A program made the position numbers and the translations under genes. Below are positions 14,113-44,569 of a stretch of DNA of 64,000 bases, one piece after another (position 1 is the stretch's first letter; every line of letters begins with the position of its first letter). Location of the stretch: the NCBI GenBank assembly GCA_963682135.1, contig OY821645.1, forward strand, positions 896,001 through 960,000, in the 5' to 3' direction. Below the pieces are notes generated by a model. The model was not told the origin of the DNA and did no database searches. It was given only the letters and a program-made list of their open reading frames with translations. The DNA comes from Methanothrix sp. (GTDB lineage: Archaea > Halobacteriota > Methanosarcinia > Methanotrichales > Methanotrichaceae).

Positions 14113-15253
14113 GAGGATTCCTATAAACCAGCCCAATTCTTAATATAGAAATGTTTATATACTATTAACACCATTATATGTTATGAATTCTTTTACCACT
14201 TGGGTATTGCGAGGGCTTAGCGAGACGCAAGGTAAATCTCGGTTATCGCAGATATCGGATTTGATCGACTGGTTACCCATTCGCCGGATACTGGATGAGA
14301 TGTATGACAATAAGAGCGAAAAGGGTGGAAGGCCCAACTGCGATGTAATTTTGATGTTCAAGATCCTGATACTCCAACAATGGTACGGCTTGAGCGATTT
14401 GGAAATTGAGCGACAAATGGCTGACCGCATCTCGTTTATGTCATTTCTTGGTTTCCCTGATATGTTCCCCGATTCTAGGACGATATGGCTATTTAGAGAG
14501 CGCATGGCCAATGCTGGAAAAGATGAAGTTGTCTGGGCAGAACTTCAGAGGCAATTGGATGCTATGGGTTTACAGGTCAAACATGGAACGATCCAAGATG
14601 CCACGTTCATTGAAGCAGATCCCGGAAAGTTCAAGAAACCACGTGGAAAAGATGCTAAGACCCGCCGCAGTAGGGATGGGACAATAGCCAAGAAGGGCAA
14701 TGAATTCCATTTTGGCTACAAACTGCATCAAAAAACCGATATTGATTATTGCCTGATTCGTGAAATCGAGACTTCCACGGCTTCGTTGCATGATAGTCAG
14801 GTTGATCTCTCAATTGAGGATGAAGTGGTGTTAAGAGACAGGGGGTATTTTGGGGCAAAGGCCAGGGGAATAGATTTTACAATGAAGCGCAGGACAACCG
14901 ATAAGCCACTGGAGGAACTTGATAAGGAGCGAAATCGATTGATCAGCAAGCTAAGATCCCCAGGTGAGCGCCCCCATGCAGTGATCAAGAGAATTTTTAA
15001 CTCGGGCTGGGTGTTGGTTACAACGATAAAGAGGGTTCATATAAAAATGATGGCTACCGCCTTTGCTTTCAATTTATATCAGCTCTGCACTCTGAAAAAA
15101 GCCGGAATCATTTGAGCCTAGCGGACGCTGTCGAAGAATGATCAGAAAAGGGGGCTGACGAATGAAGTATTTAGCGAAATTGCCTCCTCGTGAAGCGAAT
15201 TATGCATGAATTTCTGAAAACAATCTCTTAAACCGAAGTAAATAGGAATCCTC
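14113..15253 (+). mobile_element. IS5-family element, 1141 bp, inserted in the IS630 transposase 3' end
   Basis: 12-bp perfect IR GAGGATTCCTAT/ATAGGAATCCTC; GTAC duplication at 14109-12 and 15254-57. Confidence 0.93.
14183..15115 (+). CDS. IS5-family DDE transposase
   Basis: GGRP, LQQWYGLSD, QDATFIEA, FGYKLH, DRGY, RSPGERP. Confidence 0.93.
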   Translation: MNSFTTWVLRGLSETQGKSRLSQISDLIDWLPIRRILDEMYDNKSEKGGRPNCDVILMFKILILQQWYGLSDLEIERQMADRISFMSFLGFPDMFPDSRTIWLFRERMANAGKDEVVWAELQRQLDAMGLQVKHGTIQDATFIEADPGKFKKPRGKDAKTRRSRDGTIAKKGNEFHFGYKLHQKTDIDYCLIREIETSTASLHDSQVDLSIEDEVVLRDRGYFGAKARGIDFTMKRRTTDKPLEELDKERNRLISKLRSPGERPHAVIKRIFNSGWVLVTTIKRVHIKMMATAFAFNLYQLCTLKKAGII

Positions 15254-16369
15254 GTACTTCCATTTAAATATTGTTGGAGTTTCATTCATGTCGTCTATAT
15301 ATTGACTCATGCGATCTTTCAACTCTTTTTTGGATGATACACGAATCCCTCTCAGCATGCTTCGAGTCATTTTGCTGAATAGGCTCTCGATTATGTTTAG
15401 CCATGAGGCATGTTTTGGTGTAAAGACAAAATGAAAGCGTTGCGGAACTGTTTTGAGATATCTCCTGGTTTCCTTAGATGTGTGTACGCGAACATTATCA
15501 AGAATAATAATTATTTTTATATCTTTCAGATAGGCTGAATCGACGCATTTTAAGAATTCAATGAACTCCCTACTTCTATGCCTGTCGAATATCTTATAAT
15601 GGACAGTCCCGGTTAAGAGATCAATCCCTGCAAGTAGGGATATTGTTCCGTGCCTTATATATTCATAGTCGCGAGAAAGCGTGGCATATTCACCTGACTC
15701 AGGCATTAAATCGGGATATTTATTTTCAATAGCTTGAATTCCTGGCTTCTCATCGTATGAAATGATAACCATGTCGAGCGGCTTATTTTCTTTGGACATC
15801 TGTTGAAGCAATTCTACCTGCTTGTAGGTATGTAGTACAACCACGCTCTTCGGCTCAAATTCCGGATCGATTGGAGCAAGGTATGATGAAATTTTATGAG
15901 GCTTTACGTTGCTAGCGCCAAGTATTTTTGAGACGGTTCCGCGAGATAACTTTGATAATTCTGGAAACCCATTATTTAAACAATGGTTCCGAATATGTTC
16001 TGCTAATAAACTTTGTGTCCATAATTCATATGAATATCCAAGGTCTAGTGGTTTTGAGCAAGCAAGAGACAGAATCCATGTTCTTGCGCCTGAGGATATT
16101 TTTCGTGGTCTGCCACTTCTTGGAAGATCTTCCAATGCTGCATATATTCCATAGGCGAAGGCTTTGTCAATCGTACGCTCAATTTTAGGCCGATTGGTTT
16201 CTAAGTCTCGTGCAATTTGCGAAATTGATTTGCCCTCATAATACTCAAGAAGGATTTTGGAATGATCTACTGCTCTTTCAGGGAGCGTTCTTGACTTGCT
16301 AGCTTTATTAAGGCACTCAAGCTCTTCTTCAGTTAATTGCAGAGCAGGCCGCTTACTCACAAATGGCAT
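15200..16369 (-). CDS. IS630-family transposase with its C-terminus displaced by IS5
   Basis: DLPRSGRP, YDEKPGIQA, EYIRHGT, LDN, TPKHASWLNIIE; the original tail KMDKMAGGIVADKDGGVLIC* lies at 14046-14108. Confidence 0.9.
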   Translation of the reverse strand: MPFVSKRPALQLTEEELECLNKASKSRTLPERAVDHSKILLEYYEGKSISQIARDLETNRPKIERTIDKAFAYGIYAALEDLPRSGRPRKISSGARTWILSLACSKPLDLGYSYELWTQSLLAEHIRNHCLNNGFPELSKLSRGTVSKILGASNVKPHKISSYLAPIDPEFEPKSVVVLHTYKQVELLQQMSKENKPLDMVIISYDEKPGIQAIENKYPDLMPESGEYATLSRDYEYIRHGTISLLAGIDLLTGTVHYKIFDRHRSREFIEFLKCVDSAYLKDIKIIIILDNVRVHTSKETRRYLKTVPQRFHFVFTPKHASWLNIIESLFSKMTRSMLRGIRVSSKKELKDRMSQYIDDMNETPTIFKWKYEDSYLLRFKRLFSEIHA

Positions 16370-17177
16370 GATCTCTGATTGAGTTCCAAGTATTAATATA
16401 TTGCTATGTTATTTTGGAAGCTAAACACTAGAGACAGGGCTGTGCTCACGATCCTGCTGAAGACCGGAATCAGGCGAGGAGAGCTTTTAGCCTTGGACGT
16501 AGCTGATGCGGACCTGCCCGCTCGACAGATCCAACTGAAGCCCGCGGCGAAAAGGACCAACAGAACAGTGTTTTTAGATGAAGAGGCCGCCCGATCCATC
16601 AAACGATGGCTTGCTGCAAGAGAGACGCGCTATCGGAAGCCCAAGGAGCAAGCCTTATTCGTGAGCAATAAAGGCACGAGGCTGGAGAGATCGGCAATTG
16701 ATGCTATGGTACGACGAGCGGGAGAGAGAGCCGGTCTGCATGACTGTGTTTCGGCGAAGCTGGAAGACAAGTTCACGCCCCATTGTTGCAGGCATTGGTT
16801 CACTACCCATCTCCTCCGAGCAGGCATGGAGCGGTCATATGTTCAATGGTTGAGAGGAGATTCAATAAGAGAAGCTGTAGACATCTATTATCATATCAAT
16901 CCAGAGGATGTTCGCCGGCCCTACCTGACGCATATCCCTCAGCTCGGGATTTGAATTTGTGCGCTGTACCTCTGTCGGAGCTTGGCCGGATCCAGCCAGC
17001 GTGACACTACGGATAGGAGGGCTGGCTTTCGGGGAAATTGTTTTTGTCATATGCGCCTTCTGTATCATTAGAATGATGTGACACTAGCCAGAAGCACCTC
17101 GGAACGACCAGGATATGTAGGTGAATATGGGGCTTATACTCCGTTGGCACATTATTATCAAGATAATATACTGTCAA

Positions 17178-36838: not shown

Positions 36839-37307
36839 CGCTCCTGGAGGCGAGGAGGAAGTCAGAAGACTCCTGGCCGCATATCAGCAGTATCAGGCTC
36901 AGGCGGACGGCATCATGCAGCAGCTAAACCTGACGCAGATCACCGCCGAGGGCCTGGAAAGGGCACTGATTGCAGTAGAGGCCCTGGACACGGCACAAGT
37001 AGGACAGGAGATTCTCGTCCCCATTGGATCGGGGTCTTTTATCCACGGAAACCTTGCCTCTAAGGAGAAAGTAGTCTTGAATGTAGGCGCGGGCGTCAGC
37101 ATCGAAAAGACCGCAGCCGAGGCCAAGGATATTCTGAAAGTAAGGAAGGCAGAGGTTCTTGAAGGATCAAAGAAGCTCAGTGAAGTGCTTGCCAAGATCG
37201 ATCAAGAGATGCAGAAGATCCAGGCCATAATGCAGCAATTTGAAGAGAGCGCAAATCAACATCAGCATCAACATCAACACGCCGCGGGGAGCGAAAGTAT
37301 TGTTTAG
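36831..37307 (+). CDS. pfdA: Prefoldin alpha subunit
   Basis: EILVPIGSGSFI, VGAGVSIEK; QH-repeat tail. Confidence 0.93.
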   Translation: MSSAPGGEEEVRRLLAAYQQYQAQADGIMQQLNLTQITAEGLERALIAVEALDTAQVGQEILVPIGSGSFIHGNLASKEKVVLNVGAGVSIEKTAAEAKDILKVRKAEVLEGSKKLSEVLAKIDQEMQKIQAIMQQFEESANQHQHQHQHAAGSESIV

Positions 37308-38469
37308 TCGCTTCAAGGAGAAGCTTTCCGGCTTCAAAGAGGCATTGTCCTCCAAGATTGCCGAGAAGGTCTCCCAGGCCGAGAAGCTGGCCGGAAAGAA
37401 AGATGATGATAAAGAGATAAAAAGCCAGGCCAAAGCACTCCCTATGGCAGATAAGAATGCTGCCCAGGTGAAGTCTCCTGCGCCTGATGGGGCTTCATCT
37501 CGTGCCTCCCCAGCAAAGCCTTCTCTGTTTCCGGAAAAGACGACCGAAGCCAACAATAAGCCCAAGAGCCGTTTCTCCTTCCTGGAAAAGGCCAAGAGCC
37601 TGATATTTGAGCAGGAAGTAATCCTGGAAGAGAAGGATCTGGAGGAGCCCATGTGGGCCCTGGAGATGGCCCTCATGGAGAGCGACGTGGCCCTGCCCGT
37701 GGCGGAAGAGATAGTCAGAGAGGTCAAGAGCAATCTGGTGGGAATGAAGAGGAAGATCGGCGCGGACACAGGTGCCATCGCCGAGCAGTCCCTGCGAAAT
37801 GCTCTCTTGACGCTTCTTTCCAGGAACTATCTGGACTTTGACGAGTACATCAAGAGCAAAGAAAAGCCGGTCAAGATTCTCTTCGTTGGCGTGAACGGCA
37901 CGGGAAAGACGACCAGCATTGCCAAAGTTGCCAGGTATCTGATGAACCAGAGCTACTCCGTAGTCCTGGCGGCAGGCGATACCTTCCGAGCCGGAGCCAT
38001 TGAGCAGCTTGAGGTGCACGGCAATAGCCTGGGCCTAAAGGTCGTCAAGCACAAGACGGGCGGCGACCCGGCGGCTGTGATCTTTGATGCCGTGGAGTAT
38101 GCCAAGGCACACAACAAGGATGTAGTGCTGGCGGATACTGCCGGAAGGCTACATACCAACATCAATCTCATGGATCAAATGAGAAAGATCGTGCGCGTGA
38201 CAAAACCCGATCTGCTCATCTTCGTGGATGAAGCAATAGCCGGCAACGATGCTGTGGAGAGGGCGCGCCTCTTCAACGAGTCAGTGCCCATCGACGGCTC
38301 CATTCTCACCAAGACGGATGCCGACGCCAAAGGCGGCTCCGCAATCTCCATCGCCTACATCACAGGCAAGCCCGTGCTCTTTTTGGGCATAGGCCAGACC
38401 TATCCAGACCTGGTGAAGTTCGAGCCGGAGTGGCTGGTGGACAGGCTGATGGGAGAGGCGGAAACGTAG
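37300..38469 (+). CDS. ftsY: SRP receptor FtsY
   Basis: GVNGTGKTT, DTFRAGA, DTAGR, TKTD, GIGQ; TTG start. Confidence 0.96.
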   Translation: MFSRFKEKLSGFKEALSSKIAEKVSQAEKLAGKKDDDKEIKSQAKALPMADKNAAQVKSPAPDGASSRASPAKPSLFPEKTTEANNKPKSRFSFLEKAKSLIFEQEVILEEKDLEEPMWALEMALMESDVALPVAEEIVREVKSNLVGMKRKIGADTGAIAEQSLRNALLTLLSRNYLDFDEYIKSKEKPVKILFVGVNGTGKTTSIAKVARYLMNQSYSVVLAAGDTFRAGAIEQLEVHGNSLGLKVVKHKTGGDPAAVIFDAVEYAKAHNKDVVLADTAGRLHTNINLMDQMRKIVRVTKPDLLIFVDEAIAGNDAVERARLFNESVPIDGSILTKTDADAKGGSAISIAYITGKPVLFLGIGQTYPDLVKFEPEWLVDRLMGEAET

Positions 38470-38485
38470 CGATTTATTCTTATTT

Positions 38486-39662
38486 TTAAGGTAGGACAAT
38501 CGCGGCATTAATGGCGTCCAAAGCCTCTTTATGGCGCCCAAGCTTATTGAGGGCAGTGGATTTGGTTGCCAAAGCTGATTTATCCTTAGGGTCTATTTTA
38601 ATAGTTTCCTCTGTACACTCAATGGCTAGCTCATATTTGCCCAATTCATTGAGTGCATTCCCTTTATTGGTCCAAGCTTGAGCGTACTGCGAGTTGATCT
38701 TTAGAGCCTGATCATATGCAACTATGGCCTCATCGTATATTGCCAATTGCGTCGAGAGCCAAACCTTTGTTATTCAAGGCTTGAGCATCCTTTGAATCGA
38801 TTTTTAAGGCTTGATCGTAGGCATCAATGGCTTCTTCATGCTTGCCTAGACCATCGAGAGCGCAGCCTTTGTTGCCCCAAGCTTCAGGGTATTGCGAATT
38901 GATCTTTAGAGCCTGATCATAAGCAATGATGGCTTCTTCGTTCTTGCCCAGACCATAGAGAGCATTGCCTTTGTTGTACCAAGCTTCTGCAAGCCGCGGA
39001 TTAATCTGGATGGCTCGATCGCAGGAAATGATGGCTTCCTCATGCTTGCTCTGGTAATTGAGAGCATTTCCTTTGTTATTCCAAGCTTCAGCAAACTGCG
39101 AATCGATCTGGATAGCTTGATCGAAGGCAATGATAGCTTGCTCATACTTGCCCAGTTCGATCAAAGCAGTGCCTTCATTGTAGCAGGCATCCTCAAACTG
39201 CGGATTGATCTTGATAGCTTGGTCGTAGGCGATGATGGCTTCTTCATACTTGCTTTGACCATAGAGAGCATTGCCTTTATTGTACCAGGCTTCAGCAAAC
39301 TGTGGATTGATTTTTATTGCCAGATCACAGGCATCAATAGCACCCTCATAGTTGTTGAGATCATTGAGAGCTACGCCTTTGCCATTCCATGCATCGGCGA
39401 GTTGCGGATCGATATTTATCGCTTCATCCCATGCTTGAATGGCTTCTTCATATTCTCCTTGGTCGTACCGTTCGATGCCCCGATTAAACCAATCATCAGC
39501 TGTCCCTTTGTCGAGCCCAATGTTCAGTGTTTGCGGCGCGAATGCTGAATTCCCGCCCCAGGCAAATGCGGGCATACAAAGAAGCATCCCGACAAGAAAG
39601 ATGATAGTTAGAATATATCTCGTTAGCAGAATATCACCACCCAATCCTTGTATCTTTATCAA
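38486..39662 (-). pseudogene. Secreted TPR-repeat protein with a +1 frameshift near 38740
   Basis: Signal peptide then 34-aa repeats (AWYNKG.AL..LGKYEEAI..YDQA); GGC AA(T)A TAC restores GKYDEAI if one base is removed. Confidence 0.8.
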
Positions 39663-39735
39663 TACTTAAAGATTGATACAGATAGTCCATCCTGAACTCT
39701 CAGCGTAACCCGCGTGATACCATGACCGAAGAGCC

Positions 39736-40335
39736 GTCAAGATTCTCTTCGTTGGTGTGAACGGAACTGGAATGACGACTAGCATTGCCAAGGTTGCCAG
39801 GTATCTGATGAACCGGAGCTACTCCGTTGTCCTGGCCGCGGGCGATACCTTCCGAGCCGGAGCCATTGAGCAGCTTGAGGTGCACGGCAATAGCCTGGGC
39901 CTCAAGGTCGTCAAGCACAAGACGGGCGGCGACCCGGCGGCTGTGATCTTCGATGCCGTGGAGTATGCCAAGGCACACAACAAGGATGTGGTGCTGGCGG
40001 ATACTGCCGGAAGGCTGCATACCAACATCAATCTCATGGATCAGATGAGAAAGATCGTGCGCGTGACCAAACCCGATCTGCTCATCTTCGTAGATGAAGC
40101 AATAGCCGGCAACGATGCCGTGGAGAGGGCGCGCCTCTTCAACGAGTCGGTGCCCATCGACGGCTCCATTCTCACCAAGACGGATGCCGACGCCAAGGGC
40201 GGCTCCGCGATCTCCATCGCCTACATCACAGGCAAGCCCGTGCTCTTTTTGGGCATAGGCCAGACCTATCCAGACCTGGTGAAGTTCGAGCCGGAGTGGC
40301 TGGTGGACAGGCTGATGGGAGAGGCGGAAGCGTAA
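39736..40335 (+). pseudogene. ftsY: Second copy of the ftsY 3' 600 bp (divergent allele)
   Basis: Colinear with 37870-38469; about 23 substitutions by manual count, nearly all synonymous; P-loop K changed to M. Confidence 0.93.
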
Positions 40336-40445
40336 AAACAAGCAGCGCCCGCGCCGCCCGGAGCCCTGGGCATGCTCGAAACCGACCGGGAAGAGGGCGG
40401 TCGCAACTACTCCTGCGATCCGCACCCCAATCCCCACACCATCAT

Positions 40446-41222
40446 CTAAGCTATCAATTCCGGCAAGATCGGATCACGATTGCTCCAAACTACGGGCACA
40501 ATCTCGTAGCTTCGAAGCGCTTCGATTACTGATGGTGAGACCGCTCTTTCCGAATCATTAAGAAAGGCATACGCTTTTGAATCAGGCTTTCGCACTTCTC
40601 TCGTATCCATCCAGGAGAAAGCTAGAGCTTGTGCTTCATTTTTATCCGGACGATTGATTGCCTGAAGGATTCTTTCCGGTGCCTGGCGATATTTGGGTAT
40701 CACTGCATCAAAGAGATGATCATAACCGCTTTTGCCCGCAAATTTTACATTTGGAATAAAGCGAATATAATTTTGTTCCAACCAGGCCACGAAATCTTCC
40801 AGGAATAGGCTGATAACATTGGGCTTGGCCAGATAGAATAGGTCGTTTACAGCCAGCATAGCCTGAATCAGGTTGTGCTTCTTTAGAGGAAAATTCTCTG
40901 GAGAGGCTGTGACCTGGAGCATTCTGCCTTCAACAAGCTTGACACCAAAGCCATTTAGAGTCATATTGAGCAGCTCCGACCTCTTTGGCGTGTCAAGATC
41001 GCATCCCGACTGCATGAGATCCTGCAGAATATATCCGTCATCTGTCATGAGATAGCTGCCGTTTTGTCTCCTGGCGTAGATCTGCAGATAATCGTTATGC
41101 CTATCAAGATATGGTGTAGTAATCTCGAACCAATCATCAACTCTGCGAAGGGTTATCTTGGCTCTGAGCCAGGATGTATAATCATCCATTAATTGTTGGA
41201 CTTCAGTGGTCGTAATAATCAA
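40446..41222 (-). CDS. DUF1828/DUF1829-like protein with a possible restriction-endonuclease-like C-terminus
   Basis: EITTPYLDRHNDYLQIY, LMTDDGY, KHNLIQAMLAVNDLF, GKSGYDHLFD. Confidence 0.75.
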   Translation of the reverse strand: MIITTTEVQQLMDDYTSWLRAKITLRRVDDWFEITTPYLDRHNDYLQIYARRQNGSYLMTDDGYILQDLMQSGCDLDTPKRSELLNMTLNGFGVKLVEGRMLQVTASPENFPLKKHNLIQAMLAVNDLFYLAKPNVISLFLEDFVAWLEQNYIRFIPNVKFAGKSGYDHLFDAVIPKYRQAPERILQAINRPDKNEAQALAFSWMDTREVRKPDSKAYAFLNDSERAVSPSVIEALRSYEIVPVVWSNRDPILPELIA

Positions 41223-41661
41223 CCCCCTTCTGAATATCAGGTGGGCGAGTCACATTGCAGCATTTCATAAAGTCTTGAAGCGTCTGCCAGAGATCCGCGA
41301 TATTTGCAAATTGATTCGATTGCAGTGGCTCAGCAAAACGGTCTCCATATCCTTCCCGATATTTGTGAAGGTGGGGACAGGATATTTCCTGACCATCGGG
41401 ATTACGATGAGGCGGACCGTTCAGGTCCAGACGCATTAGAACTACAATGACCTTTGCCCGATTCTGATATGTTGCCTTAAGGCGGTTGATCCTTCCTCGA
41501 CTTATATCAAGCCAAAAAGATTCCCTCTGATCTTCAGAAATTAGAGGGACAACGATAGAACCGCCTACTCCAGGAAAATGGAACTCATCCTCATTGGCTC
41601 TATGTTTTGGCATAGCAATGAGCAAATCTGCCTCATTCTGGGTTAGATCAAGATCTGACAT
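41203..41661 (-). CDS. DUF6978-like protein
   Basis: LTQNEADLLIAMPK, LMRLDLNGPPHRNPDG...PHLHKYREGY; overlaps the downstream gene. Confidence 0.7.
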   Translation of the reverse strand: MSDLDLTQNEADLLIAMPKHRANEDEFHFPGVGGSIVVPLISEDQRESFWLDISRGRINRLKATYQNRAKVIVVLMRLDLNGPPHRNPDGQEISCPHLHKYREGYGDRFAEPLQSNQFANIADLWQTLQDFMKCCNVTRPPDIQKGVDYYDH

Positions 41662-41776
41662 CAGTAAATGATATTAATTTGGTGAATATGGATATATCTT
41701 TTGGTGTGGCAAATTTCAGACGGCGAAATCCATCGAATTTTTTTGACCCTGCGCCCTTAAGACAGGAGTCAGCCAC

Positions 41777-42004
41777 GGCCTCAAGGTCGTCAAGCACAAA
41801 ACGGGCGGCGACCCGGCAGCTGTGATCTTTGATGTAGTGGAGACGGCGCGCCTCTTCAACTAGTCGGTGCCCATCGACGGCTCCATTCTCACCAAGACGG
41901 ATGCCGACGCCAAAGGCGGCTCTGCGATCTCCATCGCCTACATCACAGGCAAGCCCGTGCTCTTTTTGGGCATTGGCCGGACCTATCCGGACCTGGTGAA
42001 GTTC
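41777..42004 (+). pseudogene. ftsY: Third, decayed copy of the ftsY 3' region
   Basis: Matches 38032-38421 minus a 162-bp deletion between two GATGCYGTGGAG repeats; GAG changed to TAG at 41861. Confidence 0.9.
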
Positions 42005-42127
42005 ACCCATGCCCAACTGGATTCCCGCGTCACCTGTGCAAGAGCTTGCCTGGTAAGTTTTGTCCATCCAGACGGCTCCACGCGCGCAGCCGGAACCAGA
42101 GGCGTGGACGCGGCGCAGGCGAGCGGC

Positions 42128-42245
42128 TGGCCCGCTGCCCCACAAATACCTTCAAGCCGGAGACTGCCCCGAACCTCGGCTAAACAGCCTTTGTGCGTCC
42201 TTTGTGGCTTTGTGCCTTTGTGGTTAGCGTAACTTTTAGGTTATA
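42128..42245 (+). repeat. 118-bp direct repeat, copy 1 (contains CTTTGTG x4)
   Basis: Colinear with 43365-43482; last 85 bp are 81/85 identical. Confidence 0.9.
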
Positions 42246-42511
42246 GTATAATAATAACTGCAAGCCGCCACAGTTTCCAAAAATCCCGCTGCCCGAAAAT
42301 CTGCCCTGCCGGGCCTCCCACCCCCTAGGCCGCTAGCCCACGCCGCCCGCGCTTGCCATGCGTGAGCCCGCACGCGCGTGCCCGTCGGGAGGCTGCCATC
42401 AACTCGACAGCATCACAATCCAGGTCAGTTTTGCAGGAGCGAAAATGCTTTATTCTCACGGCAAAGTATTCGGTAATATAAATTGAGATGCAGCCGAATG
42501 GAGTTTGGTAA

Positions 42512-42664
42512 ATGGCAAGGCAAATTAAGCTTGGAATGGTATTTGAGGGTGCTGAGGCTGAAGAATTCCTCCAGAACGAAAACAGCTCAGTTTTTACCTC
42601 CGAGCAGCTCGCTTTCTTCAAGAAAGCAAAGAGAATTTACAGAGCCAATCGCAATAAATTTTGA
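42512..42664 (+). CDS. 50-aa putative antitoxin (not in ORF track)
   Basis: MARQIKLGMVFEGAEAEEFLQNENSSVFTSEQLAFFKKAKRIYRANRNKF*; TGATG overlap with the GNAT gene. Confidence 0.75.
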   Translation: MARQIKLGMVFEGAEAEEFLQNENSSVFTSEQLAFFKKAKRIYRANRNKF

Positions 42665-43239
42665 TGACCGGAATTTTGGAAAGGGAACTCTCCATATTAT
42701 TGCTAAGTTCCAGATATGACCTTTCTCCGTTCGATTCCGGCAATGTTGAGCTAAACGCCTTTCTTAAGAATGATGCATTGCATGAGCAGGAGGAATTCCT
42801 GAGCAAAACGCATCTCTGTTTTTATAGGGACCGTGTTGCAGGCTTCATCTCTATGGCCGCAGCTTCCGTCCAGGTAAAAAAAGACAAGCTTGATCCGCGT
42901 CAAATCATCGATGACTGCGAATATCCTGCGTATCCTTGTATCTTAATTGCACGACTTGCAGTCGACAAAAAGCTTCAAGGACACGGCATAGGGAGTTATC
43001 TTCTTTCCCTTGCTATTGGTTATGTCATGGAGAGCCCCCTTGGATGCAGATACCTGGCAGTAGATCCAAAAGATGACGCCTTAGAGTTCTATGAAAAAAT
43101 CGGATTTAGATTTTGGACAAAGAGCCAGAGCAGGATGTTTTTGAATCTGCGAGATGTATCCGAACAAATGAAACTGAATGAATCACAGGATTTGTGGACA
43201 ACAAACGATAATTCAGAATTAAAATCGAACACAGGCTGA
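42664..43239 (+). CDS. GNAT acetyltransferase of TacT/AtaT toxin type
   Basis: FDSGNVELNAFLK, YPCILIARLAVD...QGHGIG, FYEKIGF. Confidence 0.85.
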   Translation: MTGILERELSILLLSSRYDLSPFDSGNVELNAFLKNDALHEQEEFLSKTHLCFYRDRVAGFISMAAASVQVKKDKLDPRQIIDDCEYPAYPCILIARLAVDKKLQGHGIGSYLLSLAIGYVMESPLGCRYLAVDPKDDALEFYEKIGFRFWTKSQSRMFLNLRDVSEQMKLNESQDLWTTNDNSELKSNTG

Positions 43240-43364
43240 AGCATCAAATCTATCCCGCTCTATTTTGTCGTCCTCCCGGTCCCCCGATGTTGCCTGCTCA
43301 CATAGCCACCCTCGTGCCCGAGACGACGAAAGCGACACATCCTGGCGGCTGCCCAGGGCACGGA

Positions 43365-43482
43365 TGGCCCGCTGCCCCGCAATGATCGATAAACTGAAGA
43401 CTGGCCCGAACCTCTGCTAAACGGCCTTTGTGCGTCCTTTGTGGCTTTGTGCCTTTGTGGTTAGCGTAACTGTTAGGTTATA
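43365..43482 (+). repeat. 118-bp direct repeat, copy 2
   Basis: Offset 1237 bp from copy 1. Confidence 0.9.
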
Positions 43483-43596
43483 ATCGAACCGGTGAGCGTT
43501 ATTGAGTAAAGTTCTCCAAAAATACCGGGAAGGCCGGAAAGATCAGCAAATCCGCCTTTCCCTGCCTACCGAATAAGCCTAGCACCTTTGATATTA

Positions 43597-44394
43597 TCAA
43601 TCCAATATCTTAATCGCTTCTTCCGCCGTCTTGCCCTTGTTGACAATAGCCGCAATGGCCATGGTCATCTTCACGGGATCCTTATGCTGGAAGACATTCC
43701 TGCCGATGGCAACGCCGCGCGCGCCAGCCTGCAAGGCTCCGTCAATCATTTGCAGGAATTCCATGTCCGTCTCGGTCTTGGGCCCGCCGGCGATGACCAC
43801 AGGCACCGGACAGCCATCCACCACTCGCCGGAAGGAATCGATATCTCCGGTGTAGTTGGTCTTGATTATATCCGCGCCAAGCTCCGCGCCGGCCCGGGCG
43901 GCGTGAGCCACGACCTCCACATCATTGGGATTGACGATGGCTTTGCCGCGCGGGTACATCATGGCTATGAGCGGCATGCCCCAGAAGTCACAGCGCTCGC
44001 TGACACAGCCCATTATGCTGAGCTGATCTGACTCGGTCTCAGAGCCGATATTGATGTGAATCGATACTGCATCTGCTCCCATCTTCAGGCACTCCTCCAC
44101 CAGGCAGACCTGTACCTTGTTATTGGGATCGGGGCCAAGGGAGGTTGAGGCGCTCATATGCACAATCAGACCGACATCTCGACCGTAACCGCGATGTCCA
44201 TGGCGGACCATTCCCTTTTGCTGAAGAACGGCATTGGCTCCGCCCTTGGCCACCTTGTTTACCATCTCTGGCAGGTCGACCAATCCCTTGATGGGGCCGA
44301 CGGATATGCCGTGGTCCAGTGGAATTATGACTGTGTTCCCGCTGTCTCTGTCCATTATCCTTTCAATTCGAACTCTCTTGCCAATCTCACCCAA
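43597..44394 (-). CDS. DhnA-type class I aldolase, probably 2-amino-3,7-dideoxy-D-threo-hept-6-ulosonate synthase (aroA')
   Basis: [33 protein letters not shown]. Confidence 0.85.
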
Positions 44395-44569
44395 ATTGTA
44401 TCATCCCGTAAATGTTAACATGTCACATGCTAGCACGTATCATATTTAAGTGTTGCGATTAGCTGATTGCAGGCATCAAGAAGACGATAGGTTGATGATG
44501 ATGACTACGATTATGATATAGAATGGCCCGGCGCGAGGAAAATAATTGAAATAAAAAATTGCGATTCAG

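Follow-up and report, generated by a model that had tools for sequence, protein, structure and literature searches.

How do defence and toxin-antitoxin genes reach genomic islands that hold no mobility genes? The question is open in bacteria and more so in archaea, and it is raised by a stretch of 64,000 nucleotides (nt) from the archaeon Methanothrix sp. (GenBank assembly GCA_963682135.1, contig OY821645.1; the whole stretch is hereafter called the window), in which the essential gene ftsY is followed by two further, partial copies of its own 3' end, with small gene cassettes set between them. Reading outwards from ftsY, whose own end we call copy 1, the interval holds a TPR-repeat gene (tier 1), copy 2, a PDC-M24 gene pair (tier 2), copy 3, and a GNAT acetyltransferase gene with a small companion (tier 3), and it ends at the convergent ADH synthase gene (aroA'); coordinates are collected in Table 1. 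The best reading of this stack, to which we give a probability of roughly 0.6, is an "insertion with long target duplication" that was driven by homology and needed no recombinase of its own.

An original prediction, made from the letters alone, had described three ftsY alleles interleaved with cargo, and BLAST of the ftsY region against the window recovered both extra copies. Copy 2 matches 37861-38468 at 96.053% identity over 608 nt (23 mismatches, 1 gap), the homology stopping at the stop codon, which is TAG in copy 1 and TAA in copy 2. Over the 597 nt that can be compared in frame (199 codons) there are 22 differences: 19 are synonymous, and the three non-synonymous ones turn K into M in the P-loop, Q into R and T into A, in agreement with the about 23 sites and three replacements first counted; the P-loop change from Lys to Met lies in copy 2, whose reading frame is open across all 199 aligned codons. 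Non-synonymous divergence (dN) is 0.0067 and synonymous divergence (dS) 0.144, a ratio of 0.046, and in a neutral simulation with random substitutions at the observed transition/transversion counts (20,000 trials) 15.5 of the 22 differences were expected to be non-synonymous, three or fewer being obtained in none of the 20,000. The low ratio and the simulation together show that copies 1 and 2 diverged as working alleles, as had been proposed from the synonymous bias. A local tandem duplication of the ftsY 3' end, with divergence in place and later replacement of the DNA between, would account for the two copies being nearest each other (96%, against at most 94% to any relative), but a dead copy should then have changed faster and mostly non-synonymously, whereas 3/22 changes are non-synonymous, the frame of copy 2 is open, and the last 430 nt carry about 1 derived change in copy 2 against 12 in copy 1. 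Synonymous bias, open frame and polarity contradict divergence in place, and we rejected local duplication as very improbable.

Among the ftsY copies, copy 3 has decayed most. Its first piece, 41771-41842, matches 38026-38097 (90.3%, 7 of 72 positions differing) and its second, 41831-42004, matches 38248-38421 (94.3%, 10 of 174 differing); the pieces share a 12-nt overlap at the direct repeat GATGCYGTGGAG, which points to an internal deletion of 150 nt by slippage or microhomology, and the last 48 nt of ftsY are absent. At the five sites where copies 1 and 2 differ, copy 3 agrees three times with copy 2 and twice with copy 1, and its 12 private changes include four at second codon positions and one nonsense change, so that the mixture of shared and private states described at the outset is borne out. 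Beyond these three, no further ftsY copy was found in the 3.04 Mb genome.

Repeats of 96% identity are a classic cause of misjoined contigs, and strain variants of one locus might have been chained into a false array. The source genome (G000) is however one closed contig, and contigs from two short-read runs of two studies, X19 and X21, which hold 0.95 and 0.92 of the sampled words, equal the assembly without differences over 38434-39870, 40300-41891 and 42205-43453, crossing every unique junction. Depth is flat at the level of the flanks (~50 in X19, ~220 in X21) and, in X19, rises about threefold over the segment common to the three copies (151.9 vs about 50). In the wetland metagenome X1, a 461-nt contig with 12 differences runs across the junction from cassette to copy 3, and the two-copy form of another genome, G049, described below, gives independent support for the structure. 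A chimeric assembly is therefore barely conceivable, although a loose contig end after 40337 in X19 and X23 could be quoted in its favour. This end arises where, after the ftsY stop at 40337, one contig in each of the two runs, which have the same organism label, turns into a different, T-rich sequence; this may represent a further variant of the DNA downstream of ftsY or come from a second strain in the samples. An X23 contig has copy 2 states at 38037 and 38085 and copy 1 states beyond, and may be a chimera of the two repeats. Over the TPR and PDC-M24 genes the cover in X23 and X1 is low or absent, from which no conclusion was drawn. X1 has one joint leading from 41809 back to 38159, with 13 letters between and one side of 33 nt, evidence too weak for a circle or a variant form. 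The X19 and X21 contigs, which cannot show rare forms, contain neither outward (circle) joints nor deletion joints.

Which of the copies arrived, and which was displaced, can be read in part from the polarity of their differences, for which 83 non-identical ftsY sequences, taken from species genomes and metagenome contigs of relatives, served as outgroups, with closer subsets of 26 and 19. With the 83 outgroups, the derived state is found in copy 2 at nine of the first ten differing sites (37890-37974), the derived states at 37899-37974 including the K-to-M change of the P-loop and the Q-to-R change, and in copy 1 at 12 of the last thirteen (38037-38469). The polarity switches between the copies at about 37975-38036, that is 105-170 nt inside the tier 1 repeat, and a maximum chi-square breakpoint test returned permutation p values of 0.00015, 0.0012 and 0.0078 with 83, 26 and 19 outgroups, respectively. 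A switch of this kind is predicted by one reciprocal exchange of the resident ftsY with an incoming fragment reaching from nt 622 to the stop, in line with the integration by crossover that was originally proposed. The exchange predicts that a long-branch ftsY fragment is now divided, its head being in copy 2 and its tail in copy 1. The tail has synonymous changes only, mostly from G or C to A or T, together with one conservative C-terminal change, and in the head changes are dense and partly non-synonymous, a gradient expected if the tail regularly joins a working gene and the head does not.

An intermediate state of the stack is preserved in G049, a genome of a different species, where the order is eIF6, pfdA, ftsY, PDC-M24B, PDC-M24A, ftsY' and ADH synthase (L128). 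Its ftsY' runs from nt 781 to the stop (450 nt, L128 5037-5486) and is intact, with 91.8% identity to the ftsY of the same genome. The junction from cassette to ftsY' is common to G049 and the window (41662-41771), the 111 nt before ftsY' being 91.9% identical and the first ftsY bases the same, and copy 3 is, to judge by this alignment, orthologous to the 450-nt ftsY' of G049. In G015, PDC-M24B (97.7% identical in amino acids, aa) stands 49 nt after ftsY and is followed by what remains of component A; a second ftsY copy is absent, and the junction from ftsY stop to cassette is the same as in the window. The presence of the PDC-M24 tier without TPR gene in G049, and of its left junction in G015, implies that tier 2 is older and common to several species; with copy 3 as the most decayed copy, this bears out the age order that had been suggested. 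What looks like a defence island occupies the place in G015 where the second ftsY copy would stand (L015 3880-11133), with methyltransferase-like (740 aa), AAA ATPase-like (382 aa), 228-aa and restriction-like (954 aa) genes, these names having been given by eye.

The PDC-M24 cassette has also travelled. Among G000, G049 and G015 its dS is 0.10-0.185, against 0.28-0.45 for eIF6, pfdA, the C-terminal part of ftsY and aroA', which suggests that the cassette moved between species after their split; the contrast between cassette and flanks shows movement, not the route. In a fourth Methanothrix record (L184 3643-4855) PDC-M24B (96% aa) stands at an unrelated site, between 51-nt direct repeats. The interval itself is variable, as had been expected of it: in eight lineages the distance from ftsY to ADH synthase is 1.07, 1.4, 3.0, 3.6, 3.8, 4.6, 5.1 and 8.4 kb, and the genes between differ each time, among them a helicase-HNH protein, a 1072-aa beta-propeller surface protein, a restriction-like island, and a 1143-aa protein with a HicB-like gene. 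ADH synthase is 96-98% identical in amino acids at eight other ftsY loci (L015, L016, L017, L042, L044, L058, L070 and G049). On these comparisons the interval is apparently a recombination hotspot for small accessory cassettes in a clade of Methanothrix.

Duplicated ftsY ends recur in relatives. A second ftsY 3' copy on the same contig was found in 1/58 other genomes of the genus (G049), the remaining 57/58 being single-copy, and an extra copy in 3/80 metagenome ftsY loci, with 77/80 single-copy and 56/80 having at least 1 kb of downstream sequence. In two of these loci, L107 and L109, the ftsY copies enclose a HicA toxin gene and share a left boundary though the loci are only 79% alike, and the third, L093, has a DUF6054 gene. 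The left boundaries of ftsY' differ by module (nt 622, 781-787, about 813 and about 1039) and are constant within a module. In L107 the repeat (1270-1403 and 2083-2209) passes the ftsY stop into the hicA 3' end, and a decayed hicA remnant follows the second copy; this remnant suggests a tandem reiteration of the whole unit of ftsY end and hicA.

The duplication of gene ends is not special to ftsY. Self-comparison of G000 revealed it at nine other genes, some of them named by eye, with repeats 88-98.6% identical and dN/dS of 0.05-0.45: a Cas4-like gene (three copies), a 364-aa gene, a MoaA-like gene (with a GNAT paralogue in the cargo), a MoeA-like gene (5' end duplicated), an alaS-like gene, cas2, a glycosyltransferase, an ACT-like and an argH-like gene. 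Their Pfam-supported cargo comprises PemK, PIN, RHH, GNAT, HSDR_N-like and acylphosphatase-domain proteins, and a RelE-like open reading frame (ORF) in one cassette was named by eye only. A gene end was recognised at 9/10 paired-copy sites of Table 1 (463322-465277 being the exception), and the genes carried between the copies are mostly of toxin-antitoxin type. The glycosyltransferase of the pair at 2.81 Mb is present in 14/58 genomes, and its best outgroups are themselves fragments. Proteins whose N-terminal domain is an acylphosphatase and whose C-terminal part is unassigned recur in three cassettes (L030 3017-3916, L031 3378-3923 and L039 5645-6223), twice beside PIN; in the atlas, all clusters found with one of them were of the "acylphosphatase family".

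The alaS 3' end is a second anchor used genus-wide. Extra copies on the same contig occur in 5/58 other genomes of the genus (G012, G017, G059, G065 and G066), the partial copies lying 0.9-3.8 kb downstream (L178 in G066, L171 in G065, L179 in G059, L163 in G012, L166 in G017, and L037 in G000 itself). G017 and G066 each carry a DUF433 and DUF5615 pair as cargo and G065 a ParE toxin; in G059 a NucS_C-like protein accompanies a DUF433 antitoxin-like gene, and no cargo was identified in G012. G059 holds three or four alaS fragments, and so forms a stack, and the alaS copies of G000, G066, G061 and G010 have one common left boundary. In a Methanotrichaceae record (L255 4905-8377), 332-nt repeats (89%) enclose HicB/HicA and PIN genes, and one of the repeats overlaps the 3' end of a 231-aa gene.

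No recombinase ORF lies within 34.9-47.3 kb of the window and neither PF00589 nor PF00239 has a match inside the ftsY-ADH synthase interval, so that the original observation of no adjacent recombinase holds. Across G000 the PF00589 tyrosine-recombinase model found three matches, every one truncated or with in-frame stops and none inside a listed cassette; no match reached the cut-off of the XerA model, and the serine recombinase model had no match. The nearest tyrosine recombinase (16406-16954) is a 182-aa XerA-like C-terminal fragment beside an IS630 transposase, 21 kb off (the two together cover window positions 15200-16954), and the other two, both interrupted, are at 1.63 Mb and 2.81 Mb. 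Lack of an intact Xer-type recombinase would, if true, make G000 an unusual archaeon; sequencing errors are possible.

The broken genes leave room for a different origin, on the model of e14 (and phage 21) in the icd gene of E. coli, a case said to have been described by Hill et al. in 1989. The cassettes would then be remnants of integrase-borne elements with a site-specific core inside ftsY, whose integrase was later lost or acted in trans. In E. coli, icd runs into the prophage and the C-terminal pseudogene icdC stands at the far end; the element supplies a replacement 3' end, the displaced icdC remains as a direct-repeat pseudogene, and differences between gene and pseudogene are few and mostly synonymous. 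The prophage e14, 15 kb long, brings its own site-specific recombination system and uses a fixed attachment site (PMC13626634). At ftsY, too, the gene's 3' end appears replaced, with the old end kept as a direct repeat; within the PDC-M24 module, as within the HicA module, the dead copies of two species share one left boundary, and dead copies resemble the gene of their own genome. In contrast to e14, inserts measure just 0.5-2 kb, boundaries vary between modules, several tiers are present, and no recombinase gene stands in or beside the TPR, PDC-M24, HicA and DUF6054 cassettes or at the nine other G000 genes. At least ten target genes would require as many specificities, the junctions, checked by eye, share no evident motif, and the 7-9 derived changes in the first 105 nt of copy 2 are unexpected in a dead copy derived purely from the resident gene. 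We regard such an origin as rather improbable.

The homology-driven insertion has its own difficulties, and the following points weigh against it. Substitutions private to G000 run at ~2% throughout eIF6-pfdA-ftsY, the 3' end of copy 1 included, and the 3' part of copy 2 is unusually near other species, with ~1 derived change, so that copy 2 could belong to an imported block. Three or four of the 23 sites misfit a single switch when the 26 or 19 closest outgroups are used. No same-species genome without the TPR tier was found, incomer and resident being told apart by polarity alone; the collections searched contained no strain or MAG above 97% ANI, their best ftsY 3' identity being 94-96%. No relative of the TPR cassette above ~70% nt identity, and no donor, was found in the 58 genus genomes, and viral contigs offered no vehicle, with no close ftsY relative or fragment and only two distant relatives of PDC-M24B (52% and 39%). 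Between species the left arm beside PDC-M24 is less alike (dS 0.28-0.33) than the cassette (0.10-0.185), and the dead copies of G000 and G049 are nearer to the ftsY of their own genome (94% and 90.6%) than to each other (85%); the dead copies of tier 2 appear wholly resident, and their likeness to their own genome fits a crossover near the junction, gene conversion, or a site-specific crossover at the 5' edge. Recombinases could have acted formerly or in trans, the three broken tyrosine recombinase genes showing that such genes once existed in G000, and X19 and X21 may be the genome's own assembly data.

The main rival builds on the first of these points. In a one-sided import, copy 2, PDC-M24 and copy 3 would have arrived as one block from a G049-like donor and been joined downstream of an older TPR gene, through a homologous crossover on the ADH-synthase side and, at ftsY nt 622, an illegitimate join made either by homology-facilitated illegitimate recombination or by break repair that copied foreign DNA; the tier adjoining ftsY would then be the oldest and not the newest. 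Copy 1 would simply have the genome's usual level of private changes, the cassette dS, 2-4 times below that of the core genes, indicates that a PDC-M24 block did move between species, G049 shows that such a block exists, and in one genome of the genus, G005, ftsY is directly followed by a convergent TPR gene that is 45% identical. The import leaves unexplained, however, the 7/8 changes derived in copy 2, both non-synonymous ones among them, that fall within its first 105 nt; a related TPR gene follows ftsY in 0/95 loci at 50% aa identity or above, and the adjacency of ftsY and PDC-M24 in three species is likelier the older state. We consider the import unlikely, if less so than the e14-type origin.

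Under insertion by homology, the preferred reading, incoming DNA would carry a stretch of a donor's ftsY 3' end beside its cargo and be crossed into the resident ftsY by the host's homologous recombination machinery. It might arrive as a circle with one gene fragment, which enters by a single Campbell-type crossover, or as a linear piece with gene-end arms on both sides, which enters by "ends-in" invasion like a cut integrative plasmid. Either way ftsY would come out chimeric but intact and be followed by the cargo, behind which the displaced resident 3' end would persist as a dead direct repeat, and repeated insertion would stack tiers with the newest adjoining ftsY, here TPR over PDC-M24. 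Because the arms are conserved essential-gene sequence, a module could enter any relative. The first module of a kind may have arisen when a break in the gene was repaired from a foreign fragment carrying gene end and cargo, the copied end then being rejoined to the other broken end, and toxin-antitoxin addiction would stabilise inserts against loss by recombination between the repeats.

A bolder extension, which we put forward tentatively and hold to be doubtful, is that Methanotrichaceae harbour selfish cassettes that need no recombinase, a portable piece of an essential gene (ftsY, alaS, moaA, argH or another of the kind) serving as their "integration module". A working replacement 3' end would travel along with such a cassette, conserved homology would give it entry through host recombination, and gene conversion would spread it over the polyploid chromosome copies, retention being due to the toxin-antitoxin cargo and to the damage that imprecise loss would do to the essential gene. 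The steeper 5' decay and the purely synonymous, AT-shifted 3' drift would then mark a fragment long resident on such elements.

Tier 3 departs from this scheme in its arms. A 122-nt repeat (42124-42245 and 43361-43482), part of a repeat family that we call D6, brackets the 50-aa ORF and the GNAT gene, so that the innermost tier is bounded by a genome-wide repeat and not by ftsY copies; the anchoring on ftsY ends, first claimed for the whole stack, stands for the TPR and PDC-M24 tiers and fails for this one. The tier 3 insertion removed the end of copy 3. Its architecture is the same, with a multi-copy intergenic repeat in place of ftsY as arms, and the D6 repeat may simply be another homology arm. 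The family has 18 matches in G000, with clusters at 591.8-597.0 kb (L001, 6 copies) and 1436-1439 kb (L002, 5 copies) that sit between toxin-antitoxin-like genes (MNT/HEPN, HicA-like and a 1123-aa SIR2-like gene, all named by eye), and some solo copies are palindromic. A core of 35-37 nt, 95-100% conserved, occurs in 35/58 other genus genomes with at most 17 matches per genome; one copy lies 81 nt after ftsY in G001 and another before the HicB-like gene next to ADH synthase in L058, and the ftsY site of G049 has no D6 repeat. D6 copies fold no better than shuffled sequences (z of -0.23, 0.19 and -0.22), which agrees with the absence of attC sites stated originally; an attC-like site was considered for the repeat and dropped for want of a significant fold.

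Several known systems resemble the ftsY stack in part. Insertion with long target duplication has been described for restriction-modification genes in bacteria (Nobusato et al., 2000; Furuta, Abe and Kobayashi, 2010, PMC2853133); in the latter study no archaeal case survived the screen, and a life cycle of entry, amplification through repeats and release is proposed. Its cases are likewise small addictive or defence units without transposase or integrase, between long direct repeats (46 to ~420 bp) and with a single copy at the empty site, and they differ in their restriction-modification cargo and in near-identical repeats (e.g., 417/423) that are read as target duplication (Furuta et al., 2010). 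At ftsY, inserts of 1.3-1.4 kb (the screen allowed <20 kb) lie between repeats of 234-608 nt (there >30 bp), the site is single-copy when empty and mobility genes are absent; the insert holds no restriction and modification genes, its cargo being TPR, PDC-M24 and the GNAT pair. The stack differs in its diverged functional alleles, the crossover signature, the use of essential-gene ends, the tiers, and cargo mostly of toxin-antitoxin and candidate-defence type. By analogy, the stack would work like long target duplication without being a member of it.

Minimal mobile elements of Neisseria, reportedly described by Saunders and Snyder in 2002, are said to be differing cassettes between conserved genes, exchanged through homologous recombination in the flanks and devoid of mobility genes. 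Different cargo between the same conserved flanking genes is likewise found here, in eight lineages, but the Neisseria elements involve double-crossover replacement, leave no duplicated gene ends and belong to naturally competent bacteria. Integron arrays are similar in that small cassettes poor in promoters stand in order, the newest by the anchor, and in that toxin-antitoxin and acetyltransferase genes abound among them. The ftsY stack differs in having neither IntI nor attI nor attC hairpins, its "sites" being 230-600 nt pieces of an essential gene. The integron-like array of the original prediction stands as an analogy only, and membership was rejected because no IntI gene stands beside the array and attC hairpins are absent. 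In archaeal pop-in/pop-out, a single crossover leaves the vector between direct repeats of the target and recombination of the repeats removes it; that is a laboratory procedure, whereas at ftsY genes would have been gained in this way naturally and repeatedly.

In the part of the literature covered we found no description of such gene-end cassette stacks in Methanothrix or other archaea. The bacterial phenomenon of long target duplication would thus extend to archaea and to toxin-antitoxin cargo, and the ftsY locus, with nine or more like it in the same genome and others in the genus, preserves entry scars in the form of diverged alleles of gene ends, a crossover signature and an intermediate in a sister species, so that an integrase-free, homology-driven route can be tested directly. 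Essential genes could turn mosaic as a by-product of cargo traffic and, in annotation, partial gene copies may serve as markers of recent gene gain.

Table 1. Features of the ftsY-ADH synthase interval (positions in the window) and paired-copy sites of the source genome (positions on its contig, G000:C1).
Feature	Position	Strand	Evidence or remark
ftsY, full-length functional gene, 409 aa	37240..38469	+	NCBIfam TIGR00064 E 5.9e-96, above cut-off; Pfam SRP54 and SRP54_N
ftsY 3' copy 1, last ~600 nt of working ftsY	37861-38469	+	
Tier 1 cargo, TPR-repeat gene region	38470..39727	-	Pfam TPR_1 E 4.6e-71; GC ~46%
ftsY 3' copy 2 (ftsY nt 622-1229)	39728-40334	+	BLAST 96.05% to copy 1
Tier 2 cargo, PDC-M24 pair	40446..41661	-	PADLOC and Pfam
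PDC-M24B (DUF1828/DUF1829)	40446-41222	-	PADLOC E 1.7e-101
PDC-M24A (DUF6978)	41203-41661	-	PADLOC E 7.3e-56
ftsY 3' copy 3, decayed, 234 nt, begins at ftsY nt 787	41771..42004	+	BLAST, two collinear pieces
D6 repeat copy A	42100..42330	+	Core 42189-42225, CTTTGTG heptads then AT-rich stretch
Tier 3 cargo, 50-aa ORF and GNAT gene	42512..43239	+	Pfam GNAT families; PDB sequence search
Putative antitoxin ORF, 50 aa	42512-42664	+	Position and 4-nt overlap with GNAT gene
GNAT toxin-like acetyltransferase	42661-43239	+	Pfam; similarity to solved GNAT toxins
D6 repeat copy B	43346..43568	+	43361-43482 87.7% identical to 42124-42245 (122 nt)
ADH synthase (aroA')	43597..44394	-	NCBIfam TIGR01949 E 1.4e-112, above cut-off
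Paired-copy site	290428-292360		Copies 1-4 kb apart
Paired-copy site	463322-465277		Copies 1-4 kb apart
Paired-copy site	536001-540155		Copies 1-4 kb apart
Paired-copy site	993347-994523		Copies 1-4 kb apart
Paired-copy site	1091652-1092882		Copies 1-4 kb apart
Paired-copy site	1205733-1208672		Copies 1-4 kb apart
Paired-copy site	1581504-1583863		Copies 1-4 kb apart
Paired-copy site	1743728-1745984		Copies 1-4 kb apart
Paired-copy site	2296371-2297607		Copies 1-4 kb apart
Paired-copy site	2814527-2818186		Copies 1-4 kb apart

The cargo had been called defence-like as a whole, a description that does not extend to the TPR gene, which has no clear defence signature. PDC-M24, a PADLOC candidate system, is complete here, its A and B genes being adjacent with a 20-nt overlap, and the pair is a candidate defence system on the strength of these family matches. 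The TPR gene (38486-39662, minus strand) consists of two overlapping frames, 38730-39662 (310 aa) and 38486-38746 (86 aa); the TPR array runs on in the second reading frame past 38746-38730, and the gene is apparently frameshifted, the letters of the assembly being the same in the X19 and X21 short-read contigs (38434-39870). Compared with PDB sequences, the tier 3 GNAT protein matched 15 GNAT chains (E 1.2e-13 to 7e-7), KacT among them (E 4.6e-8); others we take to be TacT or AtaT, the PDB listing naming only KacT. The ORF upstream of it matched no Pfam, NCBIfam or PADLOC family, a DUF1778 or RHH antitoxin domain included, and is a putative antitoxin by its position and its overlap with the GNAT gene.

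The source genome measures 3,043,341 bp with a GC content of 50.1%, the window covering its bases 896001-960000. An Rfam scan of 37000-44500 gave no match. To the left of the interval L39e, L31e, eIF6, prefoldin alpha (pfdA) and ftsY follow one another in the order of the archaeal cluster, and the tier 3 GNAT gene has a 57%-identical paralogue in the moaA-flanked cassette of the same genome.

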